Shown here in pieces: positions 1 through 14,858 of a DNA stretch of 14,858 nucleotides (position 1 is its first letter; the number at the start of each line of letters is the position of its first letter). The notes under the pieces are model-generated. The model saw nothing but the letters and a program-made list of their open reading frames with translations, searched no databases and had not been told where the DNA came from. The position numbers and the translations under genes were made by a program. Source of the stretch: a virus; the IMG/VR virus record IMGVR_UViG_3300044492_000112, positions 1 through 14,858 of that record; one strand, written 5' to 3'.

Positions 1-127
1 GGCGGCGGCCGCCGCCCACGCCGCGAGCGTGACCGCGACGAGCGGCGAGATGTCGGCACCGGATCGGCGCCGCGACCATAGCCAGGCGTCGCCCCACGTA
101 CGGCGGGCGGCGACGAGCACGGCGTCG
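1..127. repeat. Left copy of the 127-bp terminal overlap (circular-contig closure)
   Basis: Base-for-base comparison with 14732..14858 shows 127/127 identity. Position 14731 (t) is the last unique base. Confidence 0.97.
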
Positions 128-1401
128 TCGAGCGCGGCCTGCGAACGATGCGTCAGTGTGCCGGTCAGCAGCCGGTCGACGAACAGACCGCACGCCCGGG
201 CGTGATCGGACGCGCCGACCGCGGTAATCGCGACGTGGCGGCGCTCGAGTTCGGCGATCACCGTCGACGCCGCGAGCGAGTCGGCGACGAGCTTGCAGCG
301 GTAGTGCGCGCGCAGTTGGCGGGCGGTGTCGGCGACCCAGCCGAGCCCGGGCCGGTGCTCGAGCACGTCGACGGCGAGCCGGGTCGGGTCGTCGGGGTGC
401 GGGCCGGCCGCCGCGATCGACGCCGATGAACGGTCGGCGGCGATGTCGAGCCCGAGCGCCAGCACCGGCGACGGCGCGACACCCGGCCGGCTGGCGGCAC
501 GCCAGGCGTCGAGATCGAGCCCGGCCTGCGCCAGCACCGTCGACGGGCGCGGCCACACGTTGAGGTAGGCACGTTCGAACGCGGCGTCGTCGGTGCGTCG
601 CGCCCATTCCTGCTCGAGCACCTCGAGCGGGAACGCGACACCGGCGGTCGGATGCGCCTCGAGCCAGATGCGCGGGTCGCCCGGGTCGTAGCCGGGCGCG
701 GTCGCGTCGGCGCCGAAGTCGAACAGGGCGACACCGGGCGCGCCCTGCTCGCCGGCGGTCAGCCAGCGATCGAGCCACGTCGACTCGATCGTGCCGCCGG
801 CCGACACGATCCATGTCTGGCGCCACGGCCGGGTGAGTTGCGCCGGCGTGATCCCAGACTCGATCCCTTCGCCCTCGTCGATCGTGGCCGCCCACGCCTC
901 GTCGACGAACGCGGCGTCGACGTTGGTCGAGTGCAACGCGGCGGGGGTCGGCGCGAACAGTTGCAGCCGCGACGAGCCGCGGCGCTTGTGAACACCTTCC
1001 GAGCCTTGCGACTTACGCAGCCGGTACAGCCGCGACATCGGCTCGAGCATCGGCGACCACTCATCGCGGAACACCTTCGCCGCGACCTCGCGGCCGTTCG
1101 CGCAGGTGTACCAACAGCGGGCGTCGGCGGTCACGTCCAGACGGTCGAGCCCGGCGGCGAGCACCAGTGTCGTCTTGCCGGCACGGCGCGGCACCGACAG
1201 CACGATCACCGGGTAACGGAACCCGTCGCCCTGGTCGTTCGCTTCGCCGGCGACGTCGGCGACGTCGAACTGCCAGGCGTACGGCACCGCCCGGCGCACG
1301 CGTGTCAGGTGCGCCAGCGTCGTCGGGCCGGTCGTGGGGCGATCAGGGTCGCGTGATGTCGCGAATCGCGGCCGCCAGGCGTGCGAGTTCCTCGTCGACA
1401 C
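1..1401 (-). CDS. terL: Terminase large subunit, 5' (major) part; the ORF leaves the window at position 1 and continues at 14731
   Basis: My translation of the minus frame whose codon tops are multiples of 3 gives: RYPVIVLSVPRRAGKTTLVLAAGLD (Walker A), NVDAAFVDEAW (Walker B), WIVSAGGT, FERAYLNVWP, and LALGLDIAADRS (nuclease-domain Asp). I found no stop down to position 1. The ORF is absent from the supplied track because it has no stop inside the left edge. The start is uncertain: GTG at 1401 overlaps the upstream gene by 59 nt, and GTG at 1299 is the alternative. Confidence 0.88.
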   Translation of the reverse strand, partial: MSTRNSHAWRPRFATSRDPDRPTTGPTTLAHLTRVRRAVPYAWQFDVADVAGEANDQGDGFRYPVIVLSVPRRAGKTTLVLAAGLDRLDVTADARCWYTCANGREVAAKVFRDEWSPMLEPMSRLYRLRKSQGSEGVHKRRGSSRLQLFAPTPAALHSTNVDAAFVDEAWAATIDEGEGIESGITPAQLTRPWRQTWIVSAGGTIESTWLDRWLTAGEQGAPGVALFDFGADATAPGYDPGDPRIWLEAHPTAGVAFPLEVLEQEWARRTDDAAFERAYLNVWPRPSTVLAQAGLDLDAWRAASRPGVAPSPVLALGLDIAADRSSASIAAAGPHPDDPTRLAVDVLEHRPGLGWVADTARQLRAHYRCKLVADSLAASTVIAELERRHVAITAVGASDHARACGLFVDRLLTGTLTHRSQAALDDAVLVAARRTWGDAWLWSRRRSGADISPLVAVTLAAWAAAAA

Positions 1402-1690
1402 CGAAGTCGCCCGCCGTGTCACGACGTTCGCCGCGCAGCTCGAGCATCACGGCCACCAGCCGAGCCGACAGCGCGCCCACCGTGTACCGCGACCCCTTCG
1501 GATCGGTGTGTTCGGCGTCGAGTGCGTCGGCGAGCGTGCGCCCGACCGCGATCAGCCCGTCGTCGACCGGTTCGATATGGCCGAGCGCACGCTGCGCGGC
1601 GAGCTGGCGGTCGTAACCGCGGCGAACGCGTGCCACCGCGACACCCCCCATCCCGGGCAGCGGCGGATCCGCCCGACGCGGCCGGGTCAC
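1343..1690 (-). CDS. Putative terminase small subunit (115 aa)
   Basis: Sits immediately upstream of TerL and downstream of an HNH gene, the usual HNH-TerS-TerL synteny of cos phages. GTG start at 1690. Size and helical composition fit. No diagnostic motif seen. Confidence 0.5.
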   Translation of the reverse strand: MTRPRRADPPLPGMGGVAVARVRRGYDRQLAAQRALGHIEPVDDGLIAVGRTLADALDAEHTDPKGSRYTVGALSARLVAVMLELRGERRDTAGDFGVDEELARLAAAIRDITRP

Positions 1691-1794
1691 AGTCGATCAC
1701 CGCCGAACACGATTACACGTCGCCGGGTTGGCCCGGTCGGGGAGAGAACGCGCGCATAGCGGCGGGGTACAACCTCGAGTCACGATCCAAGACG
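1691..1794. other. 104-bp non-coding gap upstream of the terminase genes; candidate cos/packaging-recognition or late-promoter region
   Basis: One of very few non-coding gaps. GC is lower than the surroundings. Contains a small hairpin CCGGG-ccaa-CCCGG on the minus strand. The call rests on position only. Confidence 0.2.
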
Positions 1795-2037
1795 TCAGAC
1801 ACCGAACCACTCGCGCGGTAGCCGTTGGCCGCTGTCGCCATCCCACGCGACGAGACAGCACGCGTCGGTCATCGCCATCACGAAATCGGCGTCAACGCCG
1901 GCGAGCTGCTCGGCGTCAGCACGCGACGACAGCCGGCGCTCGAGCACCAGCACACCGGACGGCACGTCATACACGCGCAGCACGACACCGCCCGGGCACA
2001 CACCCGGCGCCAGCCACGCCGGCCCGGGCCGGATCAC
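1795..2037 (-). CDS. Hypothetical protein (80 aa)
   Basis: GTG start at 2037 is fused to the upstream stop by a GTGA overlap. The amino-acid composition is not shadow-like. Confidence 0.6.
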   Translation of the reverse strand: MIRPGPAWLAPGVCPGGVVLRVYDVPSGVLVLERRLSSRADAEQLAGVDADFVMAMTDACCLVAWDGDSGQRLPREWFGV

Positions 2038-2144
2038 GACCAGCCCTCGCGGGACTGGTGCGGGTGACGGGCGACGTCGCGGACACCGACCGCCACGAAC
2101 GCGACGGCGAGCACCAGGGCGACGACGAGCGCGGCACGTATCAC
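2034..2144 (-). CDS. 36-aa single-pass membrane peptide (VIRAALVVALVLAVAFVAVGVRDVARHPHQSREGWS)
   Basis: Not in the ORF track because it is under 60 aa. GTG at 2144 overlaps the HNH stop (GTGA). Its TGA at 2034..2036 overlaps the GTG of the next gene (GTGA). It fills the gap between the two genes exactly and has a hydrophobic core. Confidence 0.45.
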   Translation of the reverse strand: MIRAALVVALVLAVAFVAVGVRDVARHPHQSREGWS

Positions 2145-2425
2145 CGGATCACGCCCGAGCCCGGGGCGAGTCGTCGCCGAGCAGCTCGCCGGCGTTGACG
2201 GTTACCGGCCGCCGCGCCGCGGCGCAGATTGCACGGCGCACACGACGGCACCAGTTGGCAGCACTCGCCGATCGCGGTGTGTCGGTGCTCGGCCAGCGGC
2301 GGGACATGGTCAGGTGACGTTGCCACGCCGGCGCAGCCCGGTAGCCGATGCGAGCAGGCAGTCTCGCCTCGAGCGAGCAGGGACCGGGCTGCGCGGTAGG
2401 CGGGTTCGTGGTACGGATTGGACAT
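2141..2425 (-). CDS. HNH endonuclease (94 aa)
   Basis: Motif CSHRLPGC...SPDHVPPLAEHRH...LVPSCAPCNLRRG gives a Cys pair, D-H, then C..CN. Its position just upstream of the terminase genes is typical of HK97-like cos phages. Confidence 0.8.
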   Translation of the reverse strand: MSNPYHEPAYRAARSLLARGETACSHRLPGCAGVATSPDHVPPLAEHRHTAIGECCQLVPSCAPCNLRRGAAAGNRQRRRAARRRLAPGSGVIR

Positions 2426-2505
2426 GACCGAAGTTCAGGGTTGGATCCTCGTTGTCGAAGTCGGGATCGTGGCGATCGTCGCGCTGCTCGGTCGCCTGCA
2501 CTGAT

Positions 2506-2763
2506 TCACCGACGTCGCCGGCGGTAGCCGCGGATATAGGCGTTCCACCGATCGTGCGCGATCGGGTCGGCGTGACGTCGCACACTGTCGGGGTGCCAGC
2601 GGCCACGCCCTGACGGCGTCGGGATCTGGCGGCCGTTGAGTGACCGCGTGATGGCGGCCGTCGTGTACCCCGCGGCCCATAGCCGCGAGATCTCGGCGCG
2701 GGTGTCGACGGGTGGCGGCAACGGGAGCAGCTCGAGCGGGATCCGCAGTTGCTCACCGATCAC
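2506..2763 (-). CDS. HTH DNA-binding protein, resolvase/recombinase-HTH-like (85 aa)
   Basis: AEISRLWAAGYTTAAITRSLNGRQIPTPSGRGRWHPDSV resembles the HTH plus recombinase-domain signature of serine recombinases. No catalytic domain is present. GTG start at 2763. Confidence 0.5.
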   Translation of the reverse strand: MIGEQLRIPLELLPLPPPVDTRAEISRLWAAGYTTAAITRSLNGRQIPTPSGRGRWHPDSVRRHADPIAHDRWNAYIRGYRRRRR

Positions 2764-2772
2764 ACCGTGACG

Positions 2773-3012
2773 CTAGTTCGACGTGCCCGGGAGATGGACG
2801 ACATGCGAGGTTTCGCGGCGCCCGGCCTCGAGCGCGGCGCGCATCTTGCGCGCCCGGTCGTGCACGGTCGCCTGACAATCGAGACACCGCCACTTGCTCG
2901 GCGGCGCTGGCTGGCCGCAGTCGAGACAGCGGCGCCGTTCGGCGGCCTCGAGTTGGTCGGGATCCATCAGAGAGCCCTGGCACTCGCACAACGGCACCAC
3001 GACGCGGCGCAT
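2773..3012 (-). CDS. Zinc-ribbon protein (79 aa from ATG 3012)
   Basis: CEC...RCLDCGQPAPPSKWRCLDCQ gives two CxxC pairs 11 residues apart. The track ORF extends to TTG 3093. By my count third-position GC falls to about 68% in 3013..3093, against about 85-90% downstream, so I prefer ATG 3012. Confidence 0.55.
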   Translation of the reverse strand: MRRVVVPLCECQGSLMDPDQLEAAERRRCLDCGQPAPPSKWRCLDCQATVHDRARKMRAALEAGRRETSHVVHLPGTSN

Positions 3013-3104
3013 ATCGAAAAGCGTACAGACGTTCGTCGCGCTGATATCGAGCAGTTCGCACCGATGCCGCCGCGCCTTATGTACCAGATACAAGACCTAT
3101 ACGC

Positions 3105-3203
3105 GTGTCGCTGGCGCGCGGGGTCGCGTGCGTCTGGCGCGCGGGGTCCGTGCGTCTGGCGCGCGGGGCGAACACCTGTACCCGTGTCGCTGGCGCGCGG
3201 GGT
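3105..3203. repeat. Iteron-like array: four 20-bp direct repeats, GTG(T/C)(C/G)(G/T)CTGGCGCGCGGGG(T/C)
   Basis: Copies lie at 3105..3124, 3128..3147, 3150..3169 and 3184..3203, with start spacing 23, 22 and 34 bp. The outer copies are identical (GTGTCGCTGGCGCGCGGGGT). The inner copies are GTGCGTCTGGCGCGCGGGG(T/C). The array fills the intergenic gap after the wHTH gene and abuts an AT-rich stretch at 3078..3103. Confidence 0.85.
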
Positions 3204-3220
3204 TGTGGACAAGTTCGCGC

Positions 3221-3607
3221 TCAGATTTGGGCAGCGATGGCGCATTCCGGGCAGCCACAGATCGACGGGTGGAGCTGTCCCTGACTGTCCCGTCGACTGC
3301 CGGGCGGGTCGCCGATCTGGGCCGGTACGGCGGCCAGCGTGGCGCCGAGCGGGAAGCGCACGACCGATGCCAGACCGGGCCGAAACGTCACGCTGATGTA
3401 GCCACGCTCGACGAGCCGGTGAACGTTGCGGCGCATGTTGGCATCGGTCAACTTGGCCGCCCGGCACAACCATCCGCCGGTGTAGGTGTAGTGGTCGTGG
3501 GCGTTGGCGCGGATCGAGAGCGCGAGCAGTACTGCCCGGGCGCCGTGCGGTAGGTCGGGGTCGTGCTCGAGCAGATCGAGCGCGTACTTGGCGGCGGCGA
3601 TACTCAT
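3221..3607 (-). CDS. Winged-helix DNA-binding protein (128 aa); candidate iteron-binding initiator or repressor
   Basis: LCRAAKLTDANMRRNVHRLVERGYISVTF looks like a wHTH recognition helix plus wing. C-terminal CGCPEC motif. Strong SD (AAAGGGGAG) lies before ATG 3607. ATGA overlap with the upstream ORF. The iterons start 18 bp downstream of its stop. Confidence 0.6.
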   Translation of the reverse strand: MSIAAAKYALDLLEHDPDLPHGARAVLLALSIRANAHDHYTYTGGWLCRAAKLTDANMRRNVHRLVERGYISVTFRPGLASVVRFPLGATLAAVPAQIGDPPGSRRDSQGQLHPSICGCPECAIAAQI

Positions 3608-3777
3608 TGCTCCCCTTTGACGTGGCGGGCCTCATGGCGCAGTTGGCGGTCGCGGGCACGCCTGACGCGGTCGTGTTCGGCTTCGAAGAACGCCCAGATG
3701 ACGACGAGCACGAACGCCAGGATGACGATCGCGATCACCAGTACTTGACCGGGTGAGAACGTCAGCGCGCCGTTCAC
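3604..3777 (-). CDS. 57-aa single-pass membrane protein (VNGALTFSPGQVLVIAIVILAFVLVVIWAFFEAEHDRVRRARDRQLRHEARHVKGEQ)
   Basis: GTG at 3777 overlaps the stop of the upstream 56-aa ORF (GTGA). Its own stop overlaps the next ATG (ATGA). The longer track ORF (3604..3939) has an Arg-rich, shadow-like N-terminus that I discard. Confidence 0.55.
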   Translation of the reverse strand: MNGALTFSPGQVLVIAIVILAFVLVVIWAFFEAEHDRVRRARDRQLRHEARHVKGEQ

Positions 3778-3944
3778 CGGCGGGCCTCGATCGACTCGCG
3801 GCGCACACCTGCCAGGTTCAGCCAATAGGCACGCTGGGCGAGATCGGCGGCGTACGCCTCGAGATCGGCGGGCGTCGTGTCGGGGTCCGACTCGAGCGCC
3901 TCGCGCCATCGGTCGATCTCGGCGAGCAGCTCTAGCCACGTCAT
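3774..3944 (-). CDS. 56-aa helical protein (MTWLELLAEIDRWREALESDPDTTPADLEAYAADLAQRAYWLNLAGVRRESIEARR)
   Basis: Not in the ORF track because it is under 60 aa. ATG 3944 overlaps the HTH gene stop (ATGA), and its TGA overlaps the next GTG (GTGA). High GC3 and a clean composition. Confidence 0.55.
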   Translation of the reverse strand: MTWLELLAEIDRWREALESDPDTTPADLEAYAADLAQRAYWLNLAGVRRESIEARR

Positions 3945-4222
3945 CCGATCAGCCCTTCGCGTGGGCTACTGCCGGCGCCACCGCGTGCGGGCTGACGTGC
4001 CTGTTCGTCAGACCATCTATTTCTGAGCCAGGCGTCAATCTCGGACGCGTACACGCGCCGTTGCGCCTTCGGGCCGGTGCCGAGCCGGTGCACCGGTAGC
4101 CCTTGCTGCGCGACGTACTTGTCGAACGTCTGCCGCGATACGCCCAGATACGCGGCCCCTTCCCGAGCCGTCATGGGGCCATCTTCTACCTGTCTGTCAA
4201 GTTTCACCTTTGTCGTTTGCAT
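3941..4222 (-). CDS. Excisionase-family (HTH_17/MerR-like) DNA-binding protein; Xis or Cro-like early regulator
   Basis: MTAREGAAYLGVSRQTFDKYVAQQGLPVHRLGTGPKAQRRVYASEIDAWL matches the excisionase-type HTH pattern. First gene of the long minus-strand operon and divergent from the recombinase. The start is ATG 4222 or ATG 4174; GC3 is low between them. Confidence 0.75.
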   Translation of the reverse strand: MQTTKVKLDRQVEDGPMTAREGAAYLGVSRQTFDKYVAQQGLPVHRLGTGPKAQRRVYASEIDAWLRNRWSDEQARQPARGGAGSSPREGLIG

Positions 4223-4257
4223 GGGTTGGCACTTTAGTAGGTTCAATGCTGCATCTG
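4223..4257. promoter_or_regulatory. Low-GC divergent control region between the HTH gene and the recombinase gene
   Basis: Back-to-back TAnnnT boxes: TAAAGT on the minus strand (4236..4231), 8 nt before ATG 4222, and TAGGTT on the plus strand (4238..4243) with TTTGCA (4216..4221) 16 bp upstream. Hexamers were read by eye only. If TAGGTT is real, the recombinase starts at ATG 4258. Confidence 0.3.
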
Positions 4258-5097
4258 ATGGCAATCGGCGGCGGGTATCTGGTCGACTTCCGGGCGTCCG
4301 AACGATGGCGCGGCCTGGCCGATACGACCGTCGACAAACGCGTGAACATCGTCAGGCGATGGGCGGCCTACGTCGGCGACCCGTTCGACCCGTCGCTGAC
4401 GTGGCGGGAAGTTGAGATGTTCATCGAGTGCTCGAGCATGCGCGCAGCGAAATCGCGGTACGCGGCGGCGTCACATCTGGCGCAGTTCTACCGATGGGCG
4501 CAACGCGCCGGGCTCGCCGGGCACGATCCGACCGCGTTGGTCGTGCGGCCACGCCTGCGCCCCGATCTGCCACGCCCGGCGAACGACACCGATCTCGCCC
4601 TCGCGCTGGCGGTCGCGGTCGGCCCGATGCGCGCCGCGATCGTGCTCGCCTCGAGCTGCGGTCTGCGGTGCGTCGAGCTGGCCCGGCTGCGGTGGCGCGA
4701 CGTCGGGCTCGACTCGATCCGCGTGCACGGCAAAGGCGATCGCCACCGCGTGCTCCCGATCTCGATCGACGTGCGCGACGCGCTCGACGAGCTGGACCGG
4801 GTCGACGACTACGTGTTGCCGTGGCGCGAGTCGTCCGACATCTCGCCCGGGCGGCGTGTCTCGCACGCGGTCAACGGGTTCTTTCGAGAGTTGGGCAGCG
4901 ACGTGACCGCGCACCAGTTGCGGCATTGGTGCGGCACCCGGGCCTACGCCGCGACCGGCGACCTGCGCGCGGTACAGGGATATCTGGGGCACGCGTCGCC
5001 GGCGACAACGGCGATCTACGCCGCGCTCGATCCCGAGCGCCTGCGCGCGGTGGCGAATGCGATCGTGCTCCCGATCGGCCAGCCCGTCGCCGCGTAG
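4246..5097 (+). CDS. int: Tyrosine recombinase/integrase, compact XerC/D-like (about 280 aa)
   Basis: GLRCVELARLRWRDV (Arg I), HQLRHW (H-x-x-R) and GHASPATTAIYAAL (catalytic Tyr). A core-binding SAM-like N-domain is present, with no obvious arm-binding domain. Alternative starts are TTG 4210 (low GC3) and ATG 4258. Confidence 0.9.
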   Translation: MLHLMAIGGGYLVDFRASERWRGLADTTVDKRVNIVRRWAAYVGDPFDPSLTWREVEMFIECSSMRAAKSRYAAASHLAQFYRWAQRAGLAGHDPTALVVRPRLRPDLPRPANDTDLALALAVAVGPMRAAIVLASSCGLRCVELARLRWRDVGLDSIRVHGKGDRHRVLPISIDVRDALDELDRVDDYVLPWRESSDISPGRRVSHAVNGFFRELGSDVTAHQLRHWCGTRAYAATGDLRAVQGYLGHASPATTAIYAALDPERLRAVANAIVLPIGQPVAA

Positions 5098-8319: not shown

Positions 8320-8335
8320 GGTCGGCAGGGCACGG

Positions 8336-9853
8336 TCAGCGACGCGCAAGAGCCACCGTCGTTCCGTAACGCCTGCCGGCACGGCGCGAGTGCCCGGCGA
8401 CCTGGCGCACGACGTCGACACCGCGGGCGCCGGCGGGCAGGTTGACGTTCACGATCGTCGACGGTTCCACCGAACGCGGCCCGGCGCCCGGGCCGGTGCC
8501 GGTCAGCCCGCCGGTCGCCTGGCCGGGCCGGTCGAGCTTGCTGGCGATGATGATCGGGTTCATCGCGAACCACAGTTCGACATCGGCTTTCGTGCCGTAC
8601 AGATCGCCCTGGTCGATCTTGTCGAGTTCGGTCTTGATCTGGAGCGGCGACTTGCCGAGCGCCTCGCCGGTGTCGATCACGGTCTGTTTCAAGCTGAGCA
8701 CGTCCTGCGCCGATTGCGCCATTGTCTCGTCGACGTTGTTGGCGGCCGCTTCGAACGCCGACTGAAAATCGAGCGCAGCCTGATCGATGTCGAGCGCCCC
8801 GCGCAGCTTGTCGATCGACGCCTTGACCGAATCGACCGACGCCTGCGCCCGGTCCTGCGCGGTCGCGAACCGGTCGGTCGTGCGTTGCGCGCCCTGCAGC
8901 GCCGACTGCACCCGGGCCAGCTTCGCGTCCTGCTCGGCAAGTGAGCCGTTCGCCCGGTCGTAGTCGTCGGCGGCGCCGGTGATCTGACCGCGCAGATCCT
9001 TGTACACCGAGAGTTGCGCCGACAGCTCATTGTTGGCGGCGTTGGCCGCGCCACCGTGCTCGTCGATCAAACCCGTCAGCCGTTCGATCTCGTCATTCAG
9101 GCGTGGCAGCGCATCGGTCTGACCGGTGATAAAGCGGGTCGTGTCACCGACACCGAGCCCGAGCTTGCGGGCAGCATCGAACGCGCCGTCGTAGGTGTCG
9201 GTCAGCTTCTTCGCGGCGTCAGCCCAGTTGCCCTCGCGTACCAGCTTGTTGAAATCGCGGGTCGCCTCCTCGAGTTCCTTCTGCTTACGACGGGCCTCTT
9301 CCTGGCGGCCCTTGTAGTAGGTCCATGCGGCGGCGGCGGCGGCGACGGCGACACCGATCCCGCCGATCGCGCCCGCCATGCTCTCGGCCGAGACACCGAT
9401 CTTTTCGGCGACACCTTCGGAGATGTCGCCGAGCCCGTCGAACACACCGGCGAAATCCGACGCCGCGCCCGACGCCTCCCCGAGCGGCCCGGTGAGATCG
9501 GCGATGGCGTTGCCGCGCAGCTTCGATCCGCCGCCCGGGTCGTTCACCTTGTCGAGCTGGCGGGCCGTCGTGTCGGCGCGGTCGCCGGTCTGGCGCAGCT
9601 CGTCCTGCAGCGACTTGAGTTCGGCTTTGGCGGCGTCGGCGCGGGCCTTCAGCACGATCTCGGCATCAGTGTCCGACAGTTGCTTCGCGTCGGCGGCGAC
9701 GTCGGCGATCACGGCGCTGGCGTTGTCGTCGGCGGTGATCGCGACGGTCGGCTCGAGCTTCTCGAGTTCGGCGACGTCGTCGGCGACGTCGTCGATCACC
9801 TTCGACGCCTTGTCATCGGCGACGAGATCGATACGAACCTGTTCGTCAGACAC
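8336..9853 (-). CDS. Tape measure protein (about 505 aa)
   Basis: Longest tail-region ORF. Ala/Asp/Gln-rich coiled-coil text with a central Gly/Ala hydrophobic segment (AGAIGGIGVAVAAAAAAWTYY). GTG 9853 overlaps the upstream stop by 8 nt. Confidence 0.8.
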   Translation of the reverse strand: MSDEQVRIDLVADDKASKVIDDVADDVAELEKLEPTVAITADDNASAVIADVAADAKQLSDTDAEIVLKARADAAKAELKSLQDELRQTGDRADTTARQLDKVNDPGGGSKLRGNAIADLTGPLGEASGAASDFAGVFDGLGDISEGVAEKIGVSAESMAGAIGGIGVAVAAAAAAWTYYKGRQEEARRKQKELEEATRDFNKLVREGNWADAAKKLTDTYDGAFDAARKLGLGVGDTTRFITGQTDALPRLNDEIERLTGLIDEHGGAANAANNELSAQLSVYKDLRGQITGAADDYDRANGSLAEQDAKLARVQSALQGAQRTTDRFATAQDRAQASVDSVKASIDKLRGALDIDQAALDFQSAFEAAANNVDETMAQSAQDVLSLKQTVIDTGEALGKSPLQIKTELDKIDQGDLYGTKADVELWFAMNPIIIASKLDRPGQATGGLTGTGPGAGPRSVEPSTIVNVNLPAGARGVDVVRQVAGHSRRAGRRYGTTVALARR

Positions 9854-10277
9854 GGCGCACCACGTCAGCCACTGAGTCGGCGAAAATCTGCGGCACGACT
9901 TCGGCGATCCGCTTCGCGACACGCGCCCACGCGTGCCGCCCCGGTGTGCCCGGATGGGGGACCATCATCTTTCTCATCGGGCCGCGCTTGCGGCGTCGGA
10001 TCGTGTGCGGATCGGTGCCGGTGTTGGCCCAGATCCAGCCCGGGATCGAGCCCTGCACCCGGCAGGTGGCGCCGGTGGCGGTGTCGCGGATGTCGTCGCG
10101 GGCGCGCAGTTTCAGCCCGCGCTTTTTCTTGCCTTTCATGCCATCGGCGCCGGCGATCCGGCGGCCGTCGTCGTCGACGATCCGTTTCGCCGCTTTGGCG
10201 GCGGCGATCATGCCGGTATGGGGGATCGTGCGGATCTCGCCGGCGAGCCGGTGCAGGTTCACCGACGCAGCCGGCAC
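9846..10277 (-). CDS. Basic 143-aa protein, HK97-gp10-like neck/tail-completion candidate, occupying the slot where tail-assembly chaperones normally sit
   Basis: RVQGSIPGWIWANTGTDPHTIRRRK resembles the gp10-family core (..EfGT....P..). GTG start at 10277. Lies between the major tail and tape measure genes. Confidence 0.4.
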   Translation of the reverse strand: MPAASVNLHRLAGEIRTIPHTGMIAAAKAAKRIVDDDGRRIAGADGMKGKKKRGLKLRARDDIRDTATGATCRVQGSIPGWIWANTGTDPHTIRRRKRGPMRKMMVPHPGTPGRHAWARVAKRIAEVVPQIFADSVADVVRRV

Positions 10278-10283
10278 GGCAAC

Positions 10284-10796
10284 CTATGCCGGCTGCTCGG
10301 CGAGCTGCTCGTCGGCGGCCGCTTCATCGGCGGCCGCTTCATCAGCCAGCAGGGTTGCCGGTGTGATCGTCGGCGCATTCAGACACGGCCACGTCGCGTT
10401 GGCCGGGCCGGCGGATCCGTCGCCGAACGTGCCGCCGAACTGGCCGGCCACGATCCAACACTGGGCCTGCGCCTTGACGGTCGGGGCGCCGGTCGGATCG
10501 GGCACGATCTCGACCCACATCGCGAGGCCCTTGTTCGTCCACGCCCAGCCCGACAGACCGCCGCCCGGGCTGGCGGTCCAGTCCTGCAGCCATGCGATGT
10601 CGAGCTGGAACGCCGGCGCCCCCGGCGACTGGCTGGCGCCGGCGCAGCCGGTGGCGGGAATCGTGTTGAACGCGGCGGTCGTCGAGATCACCGCCGACGT
10701 CACCTGACACTGGTACGCGTTGCCGGCGGTGAGCCCGGCCTGCGTGGCGGCGACCTTCAGGGTCGGGTTCGTGAACACCATCACGGTGCGAGGCAT
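10284..10796 (-). CDS. Major tail protein (170 aa)
   Basis: ATG 10796 is preceded by AGGAGC (10801..10806 on the plus strand is gctcct). Position is after the neck genes and before the TMP. Thr/Ala/Gly-rich, beta-type composition. The track start at 10895 is an Arg-rich extension that overlaps the upstream gene. Confidence 0.6.
   Translation of the reverse strand: MPRTVMVFTNPTLKVAATQAGLTAGNAYQCQVTSAVISTTAAFNTIPATGCAGASQSPGAPAFQLDIAWLQDWTASPGGGLSGWAWTNKGLAMWVEIVPDPTGAPTVKAQAQCWIVAGQFGGTFGDGSAGPANATWPCLNAPTITPATLLADEAAADEAAADEQLAEQPA
10313..10342. repeat. Perfect 15-bp tandem duplication (cggcggccgcttcat x2) encoding DEAAA-DEAAA in the major tail protein C-tail
   Basis: 10313..10327 equals 10328..10342 on direct reading. 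Confidence 0.9.
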
Positions 10797-10804
10797 GGCA
10801 GCTC

Positions 10805-11164
10805 CTAACAGTTCGGGTTCGGGATCTCGAGCGGATACAGCAGCGCGTACGCCGGGCAGTCTTTGCCGGCGTTGGGGTAGGTGCCCGGGTTCCATTCGTC
10901 GCCGGCCGGGCGGCCCAACGTCGTCAGGATCGTTTCCACGTACTGCTCGAGCAGGGCCAGGGCGGCGGCGTCACCGGGTGGCGGCACGATCGGACGGACA
11001 TAGACGGCGGCCGGCCAGGCGCCGATCCCCGCCGTCGACGAGCGGCCGCGGACGGCGTCGACGAGCACGCACGGCGGCAGCGCGGCCGGGTCGAGCGTGA
11101 CCGGTAGCCCGGCTGCGGTGAGCTTGCCGGCCAGCTCGACACGGGCGTCACCGATCACGGTCAT
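10805..11164 (-). CDS. Neck protein (tail-terminator or head-closure-like, 119 aa)
   Basis: ATG 11164 is in an ATGA overlap with the adaptor gene. Size and position between adaptor and major tail protein fit. Confidence 0.45.
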   Translation of the reverse strand: MTVIGDARVELAGKLTAAGLPVTLDPAALPPCVLVDAVRGRSSTAGIGAWPAAVYVRPIVPPPGDAAALALLEQYVETILTTLGRPAGDEWNPGTYPNAGKDCPAYALLYPLEIPNPNC

Positions 11165-11580
11165 CTGACACCGCGCAGACGGGCCAGACCGCGGCGGCGG
11201 CGGCGCTCGAGTAACGGGTTCACGACGTCGGCGCCGGCCGGGACGGTGTCGGTCTGGGCGCGGCCGATCGCCAGTAGCCGTTTGATCGATCCCCAGGTGC
11301 CGCCGGTCGGCGTGAAGCTCGACAGGTCGTCGAACGACGCGAACGAATCGGTCGACGCCCGTTCATGCCACAGCGCGACCGCCCACATCGTGGCGCCCAT
11401 GCCGATGTCGGCGGTCGGTGCCGTGCCGGTCGCCGGATCGACGTGGCCGGCGGCGGCACGCTTGCGGTAGGCGGCGGCGTTGGCGGCGTCGACGCACGCG
11501 TTCAACCATTCGTCGTCGACGGCAGGCGCCGCGGTGCCGAGCGCCGCGATCACCTGCCCGGGCGACGTCCAATCGACCAC
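11161..11580 (-). CDS. Head-tail adaptor/connector (gp6-like, 139 aa)
   Basis: Immediately follows the capsid gene (TAA then GTG). DDEWLNACVDAANAAAYRKRAAAG resembles gp6-type connector N-termini. Confidence 0.6.
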   Translation of the reverse strand: MVDWTSPGQVIAALGTAAPAVDDEWLNACVDAANAAAYRKRAAAGHVDPATGTAPTADIGMGATMWAVALWHERASTDSFASFDDLSSFTPTGGTWGSIKRLLAIGRAQTDTVPAGADVVNPLLERRRRRGLARLRGVR

Positions 11581-13185
11581 TTACGGCTGCGTCGTCTTTG
11601 CGAACGCGCCCGGGTATTGGATGCCGAGCGCCCCGTAGCCGTAGACGGCGATGTCGAGCCCGAGCAGACCGACGTCGATCGCCCGCAACGTGAACGGCGT
11701 GCCGGGCACGTCGTACCACGTCGCGCCTTGCTTGTGGCCGGCCAGGTAGGTGCGTGCCGCCAGCGCCGGCTCGCAGTACACGGTCAGCCCGGCCGAGTTC
11801 GTCATTTCCGGGGTCATCCGCCCGAAGCTCACGGCACCATCCCAGAACGCCGGGCCGTTCTGCTCTGTGATCCCGATCATGCCGACGAACACGTCGTAGG
11901 ACACGGCCAGGAACAGACCGCCGGGCGGTGTCGTCGCCGGCGTCAGACCGGCGAACAGCTTCTGCACGACACCGAGAAACGTGTCGCCCGCCAGCGTCGT
12001 GACCGCCGTCGCGGCGGCCAGCAGCGTCGTCACCGCGTACGCGTTCGACTTGTTGGCGTAGTCGATCCCGGCCGCCCGCACGTAGTCGTCGACGAACGAC
12101 GGCGACCCGAAATCGAGTTCTTGCTGGCTGATGTCGTTGCCGCCGGCCCACGTCTTGACCGGCACCGCTGACGGTGTGATCGCGACCGCGGTCGAGTTGA
12201 TCGCCGTTTTCTCGGTCGCTTGCAGGGCGACGGTCGGCGCTTTCGTCCACGCATTGAACGTCTTGTTGGGGTAGTCGCCGCGCTCGAGATCGCCCTGGCG
12301 CAGCACGTCGATCGTCGGTGTGCCCCAGGCGATGATGTCGATCAGCTCGGCCTGGTAGGCGGGCCGGAAGTTGGCGGCCACGTTGTCGGTGCCGACGATC
12401 GTCACGTTCGCCAGCGCGGCCTCAATCCCGCGTGCCAGCGGCCCTTGCGCGGCGAGCACGGCGTCACGCAACGCGTGATCGGCGCCGCGGCTGGCGGCGA
12501 TGATCCCGGCCAGTTGCCGCAATCCGATGTTGGCGTACCGGTCGCGGCCGTTCGTGCGGCGACCGGCGGCCCGCCCGGCCGTGACCGGCACCAACGCCGG
12601 CTGCTGGCGGGTTTCGACTTCGGGCACGTCGGGGTCGGCGGGCTCGTCGGTGTCGGGCAGTTCGGGCTGGTCGGGCTCGTCGACGTCGGGCGCGTCGGTC
12701 AAAGTCGGTGTCGCGGGCATTGTTTCTCCTTCGGGTTGAGCTGCGGCGACTTGTGTCACCACGGCACCGGCGTACGCGCCGAGCGGTAGCAGGGTGAGTT
12801 CGTTCCATTCGGCGGCGTAGACGTGCAGGCGGCCCTGCTCGTCGTAGTCGTAGCGGGTCGGGTCGGCGCCGACCGAGAACATCAGATCGCCGTCAGCGGC
12901 CAGTGTCAGGGTTTCGTCGCCGAGCGGTGTCCGGCTGATCCGCGTCGACGCGGTCATCTGGGCGCCGGTGTCGGCGGCCATCTCGACACGTCCGACGACG
13001 CGGGAACGGTCATGGTCACGCAACGCGACCGGTCGGGCGCCGGCGTCGAGCGAGCCCGGGTGGAAGATCACCGTTTCACCCGACGACACCCGGCCGGGCA
13101 CGTTCCACGGCACCGCGATCCCGCCGATCGTGCGCCCGGCGAGATCAGCCGCCGCGGCCTCGATCGCAAAGATCACGTTGGGCAT
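11581..13185 (-). CDS. Prohead (HK97/S78-type) protease fused to HK97-fold major capsid protein (534 aa)
   Basis: N-terminal part: LRDHDRSRVVGR (His), GDLMFSVGADP (Ser) and WNELTLLPLGAYAGA. Acidic Pro-rich linker: PDVDEPDQPELPDTDEPADPDVPE. C-terminal roughly 320 aa is capsid-like. ATG 13185 shares one nt with the portal TGA. Confidence 0.85.
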   Translation of the reverse strand: MPNVIFAIEAAAADLAGRTIGGIAVPWNVPGRVSSGETVIFHPGSLDAGARPVALRDHDRSRVVGRVEMAADTGAQMTASTRISRTPLGDETLTLAADGDLMFSVGADPTRYDYDEQGRLHVYAAEWNELTLLPLGAYAGAVVTQVAAAQPEGETMPATPTLTDAPDVDEPDQPELPDTDEPADPDVPEVETRQQPALVPVTAGRAAGRRTNGRDRYANIGLRQLAGIIAASRGADHALRDAVLAAQGPLARGIEAALANVTIVGTDNVAANFRPAYQAELIDIIAWGTPTIDVLRQGDLERGDYPNKTFNAWTKAPTVALQATEKTAINSTAVAITPSAVPVKTWAGGNDISQQELDFGSPSFVDDYVRAAGIDYANKSNAYAVTTLLAAATAVTTLAGDTFLGVVQKLFAGLTPATTPPGGLFLAVSYDVFVGMIGITEQNGPAFWDGAVSFGRMTPEMTNSAGLTVYCEPALAARTYLAGHKQGATWYDVPGTPFTLRAIDVGLLGLDIAVYGYGALGIQYPGAFAKTTQP

Positions 13186-14375
13186 CAGACCGGCACCGCC
13201 GCCGCCGGGTCGGTCAACTGCATGTCGTTCGGTGACGGCGTGGCCTGATCCGGTGTCGTGAACGGGTTCCGTAGCCACGCGTTCTGATCGAGCCTGACGG
13301 CCTGATTACGCGGCGTCACACGCGGGCCGGACAGGGTCTGTTCGATACAGCCGATGTACGGGCCGGCGCCGAAGTCGATCAGATCCTGGCGGGCCTGCTG
13401 ACCGTTCTGGTAGGTCATGCCGGTTCCGGCCGGGGCGCCGACCAGATACGGCGGCGTGTTCCCGAGCCGGGACAGCTCGAGCGCCTGATAGGTGCGCCCT
13501 TCGACGAGCTGCATGGCGTCGGCCGTGGTCGGGATCTCGCGATAGCGGACGTACTTGTTCGTGGCCGCGATCGCGTTCACCTGGCGGGCGGCGGCGAACT
13601 GCTCGGCCATCTCGGTCAGCTCGTCGGCGGCGAGATCTTCGCCGCCGTCCTGCTCCTCGAGCACACCGGCGGGAACTTCCATCGCCGCGAACCGGTCGGC
13701 CGCGGTGTCGAGCTGCAGGGCGGTCGAGATCGCCCGGTAGCCGTGCGTCAGCAGCCCGTCGATCGGCGAACGAAAAACGACGATCTCGGACGCGGCGACT
13801 TGCCGTTTGCCGTAGTCGTCATCGATCGTCACCACGCCGGCGTTGTCGACCTGCAGACAGCCGGGCGGGATCCGCCGGAACGTCGCCGGGAACCCGCCCG
13901 ACGACGGCGCATAGCGTGACGTGATCTCCCAATGGGCGAGTTCGTAGAACATCAGATCGTCGACGGTCCAAGCCAGCAGCCACTGCCGGGTGACGTCCGG
14001 GTCGGGGCGGGCGTGCCACGACGGCGGCGAGATGCGACGTTCGACGGTCGGGATCTGCGTCGTGTCGACGGTCCAGAACGTGAACGGCAACGCCGACACC
14101 GCCGACACGATCAGTGTCCGGCACCGCGAGATCGTCGGCAACGTCATCGCCAGTTCACGATCGAACCACGGCGGCGCATACCCGTCGAACGTGAACCCCT
14201 CGAGCGGCGGGCCGAGCCCGTAGGCGGGCGGCGGGGTTGCGATCCGCCCGGCACCGCCGCGCGTCGTGAGGACACGACCGGCCGCCACCGTGGCTTGCGG
14301 GGTCGGCGGTGACGGCCGGCCGAGCGTGCCGCCGGCGGTGCGGGCGAACCGCGACAGTGATGCCCCGATAGCCAC
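13185..14375 (-). CDS. Portal protein (396 aa)
   Basis: Size and its position between terminase and protease/capsid fit. GTG start at 14375, 4 nt after the upstream stop. Confidence 0.8.
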   Translation of the reverse strand: MAIGASLSRFARTAGGTLGRPSPPTPQATVAAGRVLTTRGGAGRIATPPPAYGLGPPLEGFTFDGYAPPWFDRELAMTLPTISRCRTLIVSAVSALPFTFWTVDTTQIPTVERRISPPSWHARPDPDVTRQWLLAWTVDDLMFYELAHWEITSRYAPSSGGFPATFRRIPPGCLQVDNAGVVTIDDDYGKRQVAASEIVVFRSPIDGLLTHGYRAISTALQLDTAADRFAAMEVPAGVLEEQDGGEDLAADELTEMAEQFAAARQVNAIAATNKYVRYREIPTTADAMQLVEGRTYQALELSRLGNTPPYLVGAPAGTGMTYQNGQQARQDLIDFGAGPYIGCIEQTLSGPRVTPRNQAVRLDQNAWLRNPFTTPDQATPSPNDMQLTDPAAAVPV

Positions 14376-14379
14376 GCGT

Positions 14380-14565
14380 CTAGTCGTCAGACTTCGGCGC
14401 CGACACCATCGTCACGACTTCGCCGATCGCGGCCGCGCGATAGTTCAGCTCGGTCAGCCCGATCTCGCCGGCTGCGTACTGGGCGCCGAGATCAGAGTCG
14501 GCGGCCTCGCTCATCGCGGCCACCGCCGGATCGTCGGACGACTTGGACGAGCTTCTGGCGGCCAT
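14380..14565 (-). CDS. Hypothetical acidic 61-aa protein between terminase and portal
   Basis: ATG start, Ala/Ser/Asp-rich, tightly packed against the portal gene. Confidence 0.5.
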   Translation of the reverse strand: MAARSSSKSSDDPAVAAMSEAADSDLGAQYAAGEIGLTELNYRAAAIGEVVTMVSAPKSDD

Positions 14566-14626
14566 CGCGACATCATCAGGGGCGATTACGCGCCCGCGTC
14601 AACCAATCCGCCATTACCACTACCGG

Positions 14627-14858
14627 CTATTTGGGCCGTGGCTGCGCGAAACCGGCCCGGGTAGGGGTGCGGGTGCGGGCGTTTCCGTCAGCGGCGCCTG
14701 AAACGGACATCGATGGCCGTCCGGGCGGTCTGGCGGCGGCCGCCGCCCACGCCGCGAGCGTGACCGCGACGAGCGGCGAGATGTCGGCACCGGATCGGCG
14801 CCGCGACCATAGCCAGGCGTCGCCCCACGTACGGCGGGCGGCGACGAGCACGGCGTCG
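14627..14858 (-). CDS. terL: Terminase large subunit, 3' end; 14732..14858 duplicates 1..127, and the unique part is 14627..14731
   Basis: The track ORF 14627..14851 begins VLVAARRTWGDAWLWSRRRSGADISPLVAV, which is the same peptide I translate from 120..1. The frame is continuous across the 1/14731 join. Confidence 0.88.
   Translation of the reverse strand, partial: DAVLVAARRTWGDAWLWSRRRSGADISPLVAVTLAAWAAAAARPPGRPSMSVSGAADGNARTRTPTRAGFAQPRPK
14732..14858. repeat. Right copy of the 127-bp terminal overlap
   Basis: Identical to 1..127. Confidence 0.97.

Follow-up and report, generated by a model that had tools for sequence, protein, structure and literature searches.

The window, by which we mean the whole 14,858-nt stretch of DNA analysed here, carries about 23 genes, closely packed and, with one exception, on the same strand. 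They encode an HNH endonuclease, the two terminase subunits, a portal protein, a protease–capsid fusion, two neck proteins, a tail tube protein, a chaperone, a tape measure protein, a gp27-like hub, a fibre-like protein, an amidase, a small membrane protein, an integrase, an excisionase-family helix-turn-helix (HTH) protein and a short early block. Family matches were obtained for TerL, portal, protease–capsid, connector, tube, tape measure, endolysin, integrase and HNH; several small genes were placed by position alone. No distal-tail (Dit) protein and no replication or partition genes were recognised in the window. Together, the genes cover packaging, head, neck, tail and lysis in full. An earlier, sequence-only reading had listed most of these functions and was essentially right, its other entries having been recovered too. 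Features described below lie on the minus strand unless stated otherwise.

The terminase small subunit (TerS, 115 aa; 1343..1690) was assigned from its conservation (53–69% in relatives) and from a profile–profile match to the annotated TerS of phages Emperor, RRH1 and phiDSM104638 (probability 87.7%, E 3.4e-6). Its gene is directly upstream of, and overlaps, the gene for the large subunit, TerL, of which codons 1–474 occupy 1..1422 (phrog_9, E 4.4e-45; start at GTG 1422 or GTG 1401). TerL is 29–33% identical to its counterparts in RRH1, EricDab, Emperor and Arthrobacter phages, and the Walker motifs noted previously were confirmed, the Walker A lysine K83 and Walker B D174/E175 being invariant in the homologue alignment. 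A small gene with a GC3 signal (61 aa; 14380..14565) was also called in two independent contigs, Logan SRR35357574_526818 (L001) and JGI 3300082073 Ga0633478_00067986 (L089), and RRH1, Emperor and phiDSM104638 each have a small gene at the equivalent position. The portal protein (396 aa; 13185..14375) matched PF04860 above the curated cut-off (E 1.3e-22) and phrog_12 (E 2e-23). It is followed by a fusion of head maturation protease and major capsid protein (534 aa from ATG 13185; 11581..13185), which matched phrog_2263 over its full length (E 5.6e-63), with the phrog_80 protease on the N-terminal 150 aa and PF25209 on the C-terminal half. The records it matched by tblastn carry the annotation 'major capsid and protease fusion protein', H58 and S104 do not vary among 38 homologues, and JGI called an identical 534-aa product. 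The capsid protein would be made fused to its own protease, which would trim it in head maturation. A head–tail connector or adaptor (139 aa; 11161..11580; phrog_5938, E 1.4e-7) precedes a second neck protein (119 aa; 10805..11164), placed by position; family searches with the latter gave no match, but it is conserved at 36–52% in relatives, and RRH1 gp9 and Emperor gp12 occupy the same slot.

The tail genes begin with the major tail (tube) protein (170 aa; 10284..10796; phrog_4574, E 8.4e-7), for which the start called by JGI on L089 was adopted. Between the tube and tape measure genes lies a probable tail assembly chaperone (143 aa; 9846..10277), assigned by position, without a match in family searches and conserved at 27–74% in relatives. 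The tape measure protein (about 505 aa; 8336..9853), whose start, GTG 9853, adjoins the upstream stop, matched phrog_167, phrog_4211, phrog_1535 and phrog_58, all tape measure families; its length would set a short tail. The next product (435 aa; 7042..8349), also called identically by JGI, is a tail-tip hub with a gp27/Mu gp44/VgrG-like fold: an AlphaFold2 model built with 38 homologues (pLDDT 85, pTM 0.83) retrieved the baseplate hubs of Mu (gp44), T4 (gp27), P1 and 80alpha and VgrG from the PDB with Foldseek (E 1e-15 to 1e-11). The tail would end in this hub and one small protein, putatively fibre- or receptor-binding-like (183 aa; 6491..7042). The N-terminal 30 aa of the latter (6964..6876) retain about 80% DNA identity in three related phage contigs (L004, L005 and L006) while the remainder diverges, and RRH1 gp15, a 'virion structural protein', has the same slot. 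A small protein (84 aa; 6240..6494), 49% identical to an equally placed 84-aa L006 product, separates it from the endolysin, an N-acetylmuramoyl-L-alanine amidase (295 aa; 5356..6243; PF01510, E 8.3e-16; phrog_880, E 1.9e-28) that is 33–36% identical to lysins of Mycobacterium, Gordonia, Arthrobacter and Streptomyces phages and whose start was chosen by homology with L006. Overlapping its stop is the gene for a putative holin-like membrane protein (48 aa; 5213..5359), with a single hydrophobic helix followed by a charged tail; it had no family match and is conserved at 37–51% in four relatives. Lysis would rely on the amidase and this small membrane protein.

The sole plus-strand gene encodes an arm-less tyrosine integrase (283 aa from ATG 4246; 4246..5097; PF00589, E 1e-20; phrog_1, E 8.8e-36). 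Divergent from it, and opening the early block, is a gene for an excisionase-family HTH protein (77 aa; 3941..4174) that matched PF12728 HTH_17 (E 7.6e-9) and TIGR01764 (35.2 bits against a cut-off of 28.8) and is 49% identical to an 80-aa HTH_17 product of the related contig L096. The block continues with a 56-aa protein (3774..3944) supported by its GC3 signal and without a family match; a small membrane protein (about 57 aa; 3604..3777), 73% identical to a 48-aa product of another relative, L095; and a winged-helix DNA-binding protein with a C-terminal Cys cluster (128 aa; 3221..3607). The last of these, conserved at 48–69% in L006, L095 and L096 and with weak MarR_2 and HTH_36 matches under the cut-offs, is a candidate regulator or replication organiser. 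Further along are a zinc-ribbon protein (64 aa; 2773..2967), 75% identical to a 59-aa L095 product and weakly matching the DksA-like zinc finger of phrog_54, and an 85-aa protein with a recombinase-type HTH-like stretch (2506..2763), conserved at 39–56% in most relatives, whose PF07508 and phrog_95 matches are weak and under the cut-offs.

Positions 1..127 are an exact copy of 14732..14858, and 127 nt is the longest prefix that matches any suffix; exact identity of this length between both ends cannot have arisen by chance. The largest k in the SPAdes family of assemblers is 127. JGI, to which the 14,858-bp contig is attributed in the protein database, assembles with SPAdes at k up to 127. L001 and L089, which come from assemblies other than that of the window, cross the join at 100% identity and with one mismatch, respectively, and in both the 127-nt stretch is present once, with its flanks directly joined. 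Gene order across the join is identical in L004, L005 and L006. On the doubled circle TerL is one 508-codon ORF, running from 1422 down through position 1 and then from 14731 to a stop at 14627, which puts the join between codons 474 and 475. Codons 475–508 and the stop (14627..14731), in frame with 1422..1, carry an R-P-x-x-(R/A)-P motif common to TerL homologues, which do not stop before the junction but extend 11–14 or more residues past it. This C-terminal motif, encoded in the window on the far side of the join, is kept as far as Emperor and RRH1, and the TerL tail matches L006 up to the stop. The overlap, the join-crossing contigs, the relatives' gene order and the conserved TerL tail therefore identify a k=127 assembler artefact on a circular path. 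These data bear out what the sequence-only reading had stated of the identical ends, of the TerL frame running through position 1 and of the assembler overlap. The assembly closes on itself within the TerL gene, a natural and conserved gene that the join makes whole. Trimming the repeat copy (14732..14858) leaves a unique genome of 14,731 bp (1..14731; 69.7% GC).

A true direct terminal repeat of 127 bp, on a linear genome with ends at 1 and 14858, would also look like identical ends, and collapse of such a repeat would equally yield contigs that cross the join. However, the repeat length is exactly the SPAdes-family maximum k, and ends at these positions would fall within TerL and cut off its conserved C-terminal motif. 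Relatives are, moreover, continuous at the join, their own ends lying at a conserved motif upstream of terS. Cos ends are known from related cultured phages (PMC5559632), and we regard a genuine terminal repeat as highly improbable.

The conserved motif, about 50 nt upstream of terS, marks a predicted cos region at 1739..1773, reading GTTGTAC-CCCGCCGCTATGCGCGCGT-TCTCTCCCC on the minus strand. Linear contigs of five relatives begin 8–21 nt upstream of an invariant TCTC..CCC motif that is also present in the window, all of them inside one 16-nt interval. The right end of one relative, L025, is GTTGGAC, and about 9–10 nt present in circular relatives are absent there. The left end of Emperor, taken from the start of its record, whose note describes cohesive ends, reads GCTGCTTTT-TTCTCCCC and lies at the same motif. 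In the window, the cohesive end is expected within about 1749..1766. Small Gordonia relatives Jeanie and McGonagall have 3' 10-base extensions (PMC5559632). The HNH endonuclease gene (94 aa; 2141..2425; phrog_333, E 2.3e-5), conserved at 32–60% in relatives, is directly upstream of the cos/terS region, the position it also has in RRH1, Emperor and phiDSM104638. In roughly 350 nt of additional sequence that separates HNH from cos there is a doubtful 80-codon ORF (1795..2037), bracketed by a 35-nt inverted repeat (1890–1924/2166–2200); its GC3 signal is compatible with a gene, but it is present in only two relatives and family searches gave no match. The description of the window as a closed circle holds for the assembly path; the packaged DNA is probably linear, its cohesive ends being near 1739..1773 and far from the 127-nt overlap.

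A search for relatives placed the genome among small phages. There are 343 relatives in IMG/VR, and their contigs concentrate at 13.7–15.9 kb, with none longer among the closer ones. Cultured relatives show 25–33% identity and have genomes of 14.3–17.7 kb; RRH1 (14,270 bp, 20 genes) and the Gordonia phage Emperor are gene-for-gene syntenic with the window. Given its integrase, the contig could be part of a larger prophage or of a chromosome, and short-read assemblers can produce false circles on repeats. Against this, the window has no further long repeat, the join restores the conserved TerL gene with the order found in two other contigs and three relatives, the complete gene set is syntenic with cultured phages of 14.3–16.6 kb, and dozens of relatives' contigs end at 14–16 kb; a misassembled fragment is accordingly very hard to credit. 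We conclude that the window very probably represents one complete genome, 14,731 bp long, of a very small, uncultured tailed phage whose gene plan is that of a siphovirus and which carries an integrase. The host is most likely a high-GC Gram-positive bacterium (Actinomycetota), because the genome is 69.7% GC and nearly all cultured and lysin relatives infect Actinomycetota.

The size context given in the sequence-only reading was incomplete, since GenBank holds more siphoviruses of about 14–15.6 kb than it named: RRH1, Kels (14,830 bp), Atraxa and Sputnik (14,927 bp), Root (15,138 bp) and Arthrobacter phages of 15.3–15.6 kb. Its view that a temperate-looking phage of this size is unusual overstated the rarity. 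Gordonia clusters CW and DM (15.9–17.7 kb) are temperate (PMC5559632; bioRxiv 10.1101/2022.02.05.479200), and uncultured IMG/VR relatives of the same size already include integrase bearers; the gene is present in about one-third of the longer clade contigs examined, a 14,622-bp circle among them.

The best solved structure for the integrase was Brujita Gp33 (PDB 5VFZ, E 1.8e-20), followed by XerC, XerD and XerA. The alignment with Gp33 covers near-full length and takes in the HxxR box. Since 5VFZ carries Ile at the position of the catalytic tyrosine, that column shows up solely in the XerC-like alignment. The protein is 35–37% identical to annotated integrases of Gordonia phages Rahul, Emperor and EricDab. 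About 50 nt past its stop lies a palindrome (5145..5168, no strand), GGCTAGAA-attgttgc-TTCTAGCC, a candidate recombination core (attP) or terminator. It is single-copy in the window, was matched by 0 of 200 shuffles and recurs unchanged in L095, whose integrase is 84% identical; the copy in L097, whose integrase is 71% identical, has a different spacer and a single mismatch in the 3' arm (TTCTAaCC). An arm-less Xer-/Brujita-type integrase facing an excisionase-family HTH gene suggests an ability to integrate into a host chromosome. Lysogeny is an inference, because an integrated copy, attB and a repressor were not found: a pattern-based scan, which can miss relatives, detected no capsid-protein relatives in 185,579 species-representative genomes, no repressor was identified beside the integrase gene, and neither attB nor a tRNA-like attP was found.

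It is also possible, though unlikely, that the phage does not integrate and, if persistent, exists as circular episomal or carrier-state DNA, with the Xer-like recombinase resolving multimers or serving another role. The lack of an integrated copy in the genomes scanned is consistent with this, as are the arm-less recombinase, which scores best against XerC, XerA and XerD models, and the lack of an adjoining repressor. Neither a capsid relative (about 90 examined) nor an integrase relative at least 45% identical was seen on a contig of more than about 16 kb, save one tandem dimer. Furthermore, phiDSM104638, from a pure culture of Corynebacterium heidelbergense, has the same architecture and a 34% identical recombinase and appears in its record as a circular 'plasmid' of 16,908 bp. 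On the other hand, the window has no recognised partition or replication genes, the nearest characterised recombinase relatives are the annotated Gordonia phage integrases, and a chromosomal-looking MAG contig contains a 52% identical recombinase with an HTH_17 gene adjoining. Hosts may, in addition, be unsequenced. Small Gordonia phages of cluster CW are temperate and integrate at a tRNA-Lys attB (PMC5559632).

A strictly lytic phage, in which the integrase gene is non-functional or a recently acquired passenger, appears improbable. An integrase is missing from the same position in about two-thirds of the longer clade contigs examined, the closest one (L006) being one of these, no repressor was identified, and RRH1 and the small Arthrobacter phages are lytic (PMC5559632; bioRxiv 10.1101/2022.02.05.479200). 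The integrase ORF is, however, intact, with a normal GC3 signal (0.86), aligns with Gp33 as described, has relatives kept at 63–87% identity in several other contigs, and is flanked by the excisionase-family gene and the conserved palindrome.

The phage belongs to an already known kind, the small phages of high-GC bacteria. In the proposed cycle, TerS and TerL would package concatemers, assisted by the adjacent HNH nuclease, and a cut at cos would yield linear virion DNA with 3' cohesive ends of about 10 nt. The integrase and its flanks suggest that the phage can integrate into the host chromosome, as related small Gordonia phages do.

Bases 1..127 of the window equal its last 127 bases (14732..14858) exactly, with 127 nt the longest overlap, leaving 14,731 bp of unique sequence at 69.7% GC. 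When the circle was doubled, a 508-codon minus-strand ORF ran from 1422 to 1 and continued in frame from 14731 to a stop at 14627, placing the join between codons 474 and 475. This ORF matched terminase large subunit (TerL) families (phrog_9, E 4.4e-45), and its Walker A lysine and Walker B Asp-Glu were invariant in the homologue alignment. Two contigs were found to cross the join: a 3,304-bp Logan contig (run SRR35357574) is 100% identical to 826..1 fused directly to 14731..12254, and a 4,883-bp JGI contig (metagenome 3300082073) crosses it likewise with one mismatch, and therefore comes from a different population or sample. Three related phage contigs (L004, L005 and L006; capsid 43-65% identical) were unbroken across the equivalent point. 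TerL homologues were checked for an end before the junction; all extend past it, including those of Gordonia phage Emperor and Rhodococcus phage RRH1. An R-P-x-x-(R/A)-P motif conserved among them is coded in the window at 14731..14700, on the far side of the join, and the TerL of the closest relative matches right up to the stop codon. These four independent lines (the two contigs, the three relatives and the TerL homologues) indicate that the join is natural.

Contigs crossing the join are ambiguous by themselves, since a true terminal repeat that had been collapsed would yield them too. A true terminal repeat was rejected, however, as it would set the genome ends inside a conserved gene and would have a length of exactly 127 nt. 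The largest k in SPAdes-type assemblers is 127, and the protein database lists the window's contig under JGI. Given this listing, the exact length and the position within TerL, we attribute the overlap to the assembler acting on a circular path. The sequence-only reading had proposed the terminal overlap, its k=127 origin and the passage of TerL through position 1, and all three held; closure of the circle is correct and well supported.

Gene calls were based on third-position GC, family searches and comparison with relatives, and gave about 23 genes. Only one lies on the plus strand, and in most cases the stop codon of one gene overlaps the start of the next. First in transcription order is an HNH endonuclease (2425..2141), followed by a poorly conserved 80-codon ORF (2037..1795), the small terminase subunit TerS (1690..1343) and TerL (1422..1 and 14731..14627). 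The 80-codon ORF was the first candidate for TerS and was dropped in favour of the ORF at 1690..1343, which is 53-69% conserved in relatives and matches TerS profiles; profile comparison with the annotated TerS of Emperor, RRH1 and the Corynebacterium element phiDSM104638 gave a probability of 87.7% (E 3.4e-6). After TerL come a 61-aa protein, a portal (PF04860, E 1.3e-22) and a 534-aa protease-capsid fusion, which matches phrog_2263 over its full length (E 5.6e-63) and the phrog_80 protease. His58 and Ser104 of the fusion are invariant in 38 homologues, and its tblastn matches carry fusion-protein annotation. A connector (phrog_5938), a 119-aa protein, a tube protein (phrog_4574), a 143-aa protein in the chaperone position and a tape measure of ~505 aa follow.

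The next gene encodes a 435-aa baseplate-hub-like protein with no tblastn match in cultured phages. Its AlphaFold2 model (pLDDT 85) matched Mu gp44, T4 gp27, phage 80alpha and VgrG in Foldseek (E 1e-15 to 1e-11), structure prediction being the sole source of the putative hub role. The tape-measure, tube and hub genes suggest a siphoviral particle. Across 7042..9853 the gp27-like hub gene directly follows the tape-measure gene, an arrangement also found in RRH1, and no distal-tail (Dit) protein was recognised anywhere in the window; small phages of this kind may thus have an unusually simple tail tip. Downstream lies a 183-aa protein whose first ~30 codons (6876..6964) share ~80% DNA identity with L004, L005 and L006, while the remainder is unrelated and varies among relatives, a pattern of seemingly swappable receptor-binding domains that fits a receptor-binding protein. 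This part of the genome is completed by an 84-aa protein, an amidase_2 endolysin (PF01510, E 8.3e-16) and a 48-aa membrane protein with one helix, and the packaging, virion and lysis genes together occupy ~11.5 kb.

The only plus-strand gene encodes a 283-aa integrase (4246..5097). Divergent from it, an excisionase-family HTH gene (4174..3941; PF12728 and TIGR01764, each above cut-off) heads the early block, which otherwise comprises 56-aa, 57-aa membrane, 128-aa winged-helix, 64-aa zinc-ribbon and 85-aa proteins. The genes of the early operon are tightly coupled except at a 253-nt interval of lower GC (2968..3220), which holds no convincing gene and may serve as a promoter or origin. No replication genes were found among the window's genes. 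That a minimal plan with neither recognised replication genes nor a recognised Dit gene can be viable is shown by the cultured phage RRH1 (20 genes), whose gene order, like that of Emperor, the window matches.

The sequence-only reading had described a closed circle, which is right for the assembly and not for the virion, whose DNA is probably linear with cos ends, judging from the ends of relatives' contigs. At least seven of 18 near-complete contigs of relatives start 70-440 nt upstream of terS, and five (L021, L029, L025, L012 and L010) start inside a 16-nt interval just upstream of an invariant TCTCTC(C/T)CCC motif; five independent ends within 16 nt of a 14.7-kb genome are not due to chance. 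The HNH gene lies near the opposite end in four contigs (L005, L010, L012 and L025), and the same motif block is internal in circular or permuted relatives. In the window this block occupies 1773..1739 on the minus strand, ~50 nt before the TerS start. The record of Emperor describes cohesive ends, with a left end that begins GCTGCTTTT-TTCTCCCC, the same arrangement as the window block, with which it has the cos-adjacent TTCTCCCC motif in common. The right end of L025 stops at GTTGGAC and its left end begins ~9-10 nt further on, the gap that end-repair of a short 3' overhang leaves; 3' 10-base extensions occur in the related Gordonia phages Jeanie and McGonagall (PMC5559632). The HNH gene, TerS and TerL are adjacent, as in the HNH-assisted (HK97-type) cos arrangement. 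Together, the clustered ends, the Emperor left end, the L025 gap and the Jeanie and McGonagall extensions argue for HNH-assisted cos packaging, with ends that would lie near 1749..1766 by comparison with relatives.

The interval from the HNH gene to the cos motif is ~350 nt longer in the window than in the relatives L031, L028 and L034, and a 35-nt inverted repeat (1890..1924 and 2166..2200, 89% complementary) flanks the 80-codon ORF; the extra sequence and the repeat could represent a small insertion beside cos. The long-read contig L004 (ENA ERZ26871208 contig_247565_np1212, 28,122 bp) comprises about two tandem units of a ~14.2-14.6-kb integrase-bearing relative, with two 512-aa TerL genes 14,164 nt apart. 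Its copies are only ~86% alike, which looks like sequencing noise, and it may be a read-level view of a concatemer. The last 120 bases at the right end of L021 contain four copies of the palindrome CCGTCACCAGTGACGG, which look like operators or iterons; no comparable copies were seen in the window.

Among cultured phages, the window falls nearest the small-genome actinobacteriophages (RRH1, Gordonia clusters CW and DM, Arthrobacter clusters AN, AX and FE), which have genomes of 14.3-19.7 kb made up mostly of virion genes, a shared TerL family with 31-68% mutual identity, and a capsid fused to its maturation protease (PMC5559632; bioRxiv 10.1101/2022.02.05.479200). The window has both the size (14,731 bp) and the capsid-protease fusion of this group, and 81-85% of its TerL aligns at 29-33% identity with those of RRH1, EricDab, Emperor, Kels and Decurro, which is at the bottom end of the published range. 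To join an existing cluster, a phage needs at least 35% shared gene content. At a tblastn E of 1e-4, five window proteins (TerL, portal, capsid, lysin domain and integrase) matched Emperor and two matched RRH1; a search in the other direction, from Emperor proteins at E 1e-2, gave two more, both weak (gp11 and the major tail protein). Window proteins are only 25-33% identical to those of these cultured small phages, and no DNA match emerged when the whole circle was compared by megablast with 50,697 phage records. By these tblastn and DNA searches, the window appears to belong to no existing cluster. Its GC content and the hosts of its relatives suggest an actinobacterial host.

RRH1 (NC_016651) is of the same size class and is seemingly lytic (PMC5559632). 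Its genes run in the same order as those of the window: TerS and TerL, a small gene, the portal, the protease-capsid fusion, the connector, another small gene, the tube and the tape measure, a large and then a small tail-tip protein, a further small gene, the early genes and, at the end, HNH. Its TerL is 32% identical. Unlike the window, RRH1 lacks an integrase and carries its endolysin between the portal and capsid genes. Only TerL and portal matched in tblastn of the RRH1 locus, which has no DNA similarity to the window, yet RRH1 is among the records matched by the capsid fusion. The CW and DM phages, like Emperor, EricDab and Rahul (16.2-16.7 kb), resemble the window in having HNH at the cos site, TerS and TerL, a capsid fused to its protease and, past the tail genes, an arm-less tyrosine integrase coded on the opposite strand. 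Compared with these Gordonia phages, the window is 1.2-3 kb shorter, lacks lysin B and a repressor co-oriented with int, and carries its lysis genes after the tail genes, whereas theirs are among the head genes. Integrases are 35-37% and TerL 30-33% identical; the overall similarity seems too low for membership of the Gordonia clusters.

The Arthrobacter small phages (Decurro, Maggie, Kels, Atraxa and others, 14.8-15.8 kb), reported to be lytic (bioRxiv 10.1101/2022.02.05.479200), and Curtobacterium phage Root are of the window's size class. They are distant relatives only (capsid fusion 25-28% identical over 89-91% of its length, TerL ~29-31%), and none of the Arthrobacter phages is among the best integrase matches. 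The 'plasmid' phiDSM104638 of Corynebacterium heidelbergense DSM 104638 (NZ_CP063192.1) is a small siphovirus, recorded as a 16,908-bp circle, with the window's architecture, including a tyrosine recombinase; TerL and portal are each 31%, capsid 26% and recombinase 34% identical. It differs from the window in being an extrachromosomal circle in pure culture, 2.2 kb larger, with 66% GC, a WhiB gene and a collagen-like fibre. A literature search on phiDSM104638 returned nothing specific.

The sequence-only reading had rightly counted RRH1 among the smallest actinobacterial siphoviruses, but its list was incomplete. GenBank holds RRH1 (14,270 bp), Kels (14,830), Atraxa and Sputnik (14,927) and Root (15,138), in addition to about 40 Arthrobacter phages of 15.3-15.6 kb and Gordonia phages of 15.9-17.7 kb, and one survey covers 109 actinobacteriophages from 14,270 to 19,679 bp (bioRxiv 10.1101/2022.02.05.479200). 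A protein search found 89 capsid relatives on uncultured contigs, most 40-68% identical with two more distant, and none reached 70%. Contigs of this clade share the window's gene order and measure 13.7-15.9 kb; for the relatives from the protein search, the longest contigs cluster at 13.7-15.5 kb. IMG/VR holds 343 relatives, with none above 16 kb among the best 80 of the 343, and the window's own sequence was not present there. About one-third of the longer clade contigs examined have an integrase in the window's position. L042, closed by a 127-nt overlap, has an integrase, as does L031 (IMGVR_UViG_3300005937_000393; 14,725 bp, of which 14,622 bp are unique given a 103-nt overlap), a genome a little smaller than the window. 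The closest relative, L006 (Logan SRR14194057_28552), has none, indicating that the integrase cassette comes and goes within the clade. The claim that a temperate-looking phage of this size would be unusual is overstated: the window is among the smallest integrase-bearing tailed-phage genomes, but the Gordonia CW and DM phages (15.9-17.7 kb) are temperate (PMC5559632; bioRxiv 10.1101/2022.02.05.479200) and integrase-bearing relatives of the same size are present in IMG/VR.

The integrase is an intact simple tyrosine recombinase, and family searches found no extra N-terminal domain, making it arm-less. Its best solved structure was 5VFZ Gp33 (E 1.8e-20, aligned over nearly the whole protein), which we take to be the arm-less integrase of mycobacteriophage Brujita, followed by XerC, XerD and XerA. 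The best phage relatives were the annotated integrases of Gordonia phages Rahul, Emperor and EricDab; the exact protein was not on record in the assembly index. In integration-dependent immunity, as described for BPs, Brujita, Charlie and Gordonia CW phages, a simple tyrosine integrase without an arm-binding domain carries a C-terminal degradation tag, the repressor gene, whose coding sequence contains attP, precedes int in the same orientation, and the first lytic gene is cro-like and divergently transcribed (PMC3694055). The window fits this definition only in part, having the arm-less integrase but not the repressor. The gap between int and the divergent HTH_17 gene is 71 nt (4175-4245), or 35 nt if the integrase starts at TTG 4210 instead of ATG 4246, with neither an ORF nor room for a co-oriented repressor; no other plus-strand gene with coding signal was found in the window. 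L006 has the HTH gene without any integrase. The integrase ends in ...GQPVAA, and 25 of 120 relatives end in -AA, the closest in -VAA or -IAA; another subgroup (among P0090-P0209) has a common tail ...SE(T)DDSDQHQ...APV. Both endings look like conserved C-terminal signals.

About 50 nt past the integrase stop, at the most AT-rich spot of the genome, lies a perfect 8-8-8 palindrome, GGCTAGAA-attgttgc-TTCTAGCC (5145..5168). It is conserved in the closest integrase-bearing relative, whose integrase is 84% identical; a second relative (integrase 71% identical) shows another spacer and a single mismatch in the 3' arm. The palindrome could be either a simple core site (attP) or a terminator. An exact search for its core in metagenome contigs and IMG/VR gave no match, and neither ARAGORN nor a permissive Rfam scan detected a tRNA or a tRNA-like fragment that could mark attP. 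The tRNA calls in some relatives were discounted because they were too long and lay within coding sequence.

Two scans of 185,579 species-representative genomes, with the single capsid protein and with a 38-sequence alignment, revealed no capsid relatives, and hence no prophage copy or host. Neither capsid relatives nor integrase relatives at least 45% identical occurred on a contig above ~16 kb, apart from L004, which was rejected as an integrated copy because it is a noisy tandem dimer. A 30-kb contig with a 39% identical integrase (P0146) belongs to a different, larger phage. A chromosomal-looking MAG contig (GCA_017973815.1, JAEMOJ010000184.1) carries a 52% identical integrase that has TetR, P450 and monooxygenase genes as neighbours and adjoins an HTH_17 gene and a second integrase fragment; it may hold a small integrated element with the same recombinase family. 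That the window phage is temperate is a reasonable inference. Chromosomal integration is close to an even call, and an episomal or carrier state is a live alternative. We think it improbable that the integrase-bearing 14-16-kb members of the clade, the window phage among them, are the smallest self-sufficient temperate tailed phages, with a lysogeny switch reduced even beyond the known integration-dependent systems. Such a switch would combine a simple palindromic site and an excisionase-type HTH with an integrase that is arm-less and perhaps carries a protease tag, and would lack a separate repressor gene. Alternatively, these members may persist as circles that do not integrate.

The object is a distant new phage of a familiar type, with nothing unexpected about it, and its value is incremental, as the architecture, packaging type and integrase type are already known and integrase-bearing relatives of the same size were already in public collections, unremarked. 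Its 14,731 bp place it between RRH1 and Kels, which have the two smallest cultured siphovirus genomes in GenBank, and ~1.2 kb below the smallest cultured temperate siphoviruses. A genome-length model predicts 8.1-17.1 kb for T=3 and 13.2-24.5 kb for T=4 capsids (PMC7762592); 14.7 kb falls in the overlap of these predicted ranges, making the phage a candidate for very small capsid geometry. The absence of integrated copies raises the question of how, or whether, these phages lysogenise. The window provides a clean closed reference genome for a large uncultured clade with no cultured member closer than ~30% protein identity, and helps to establish how few genes suffice for a tailed phage with a possible lysogenic phase.
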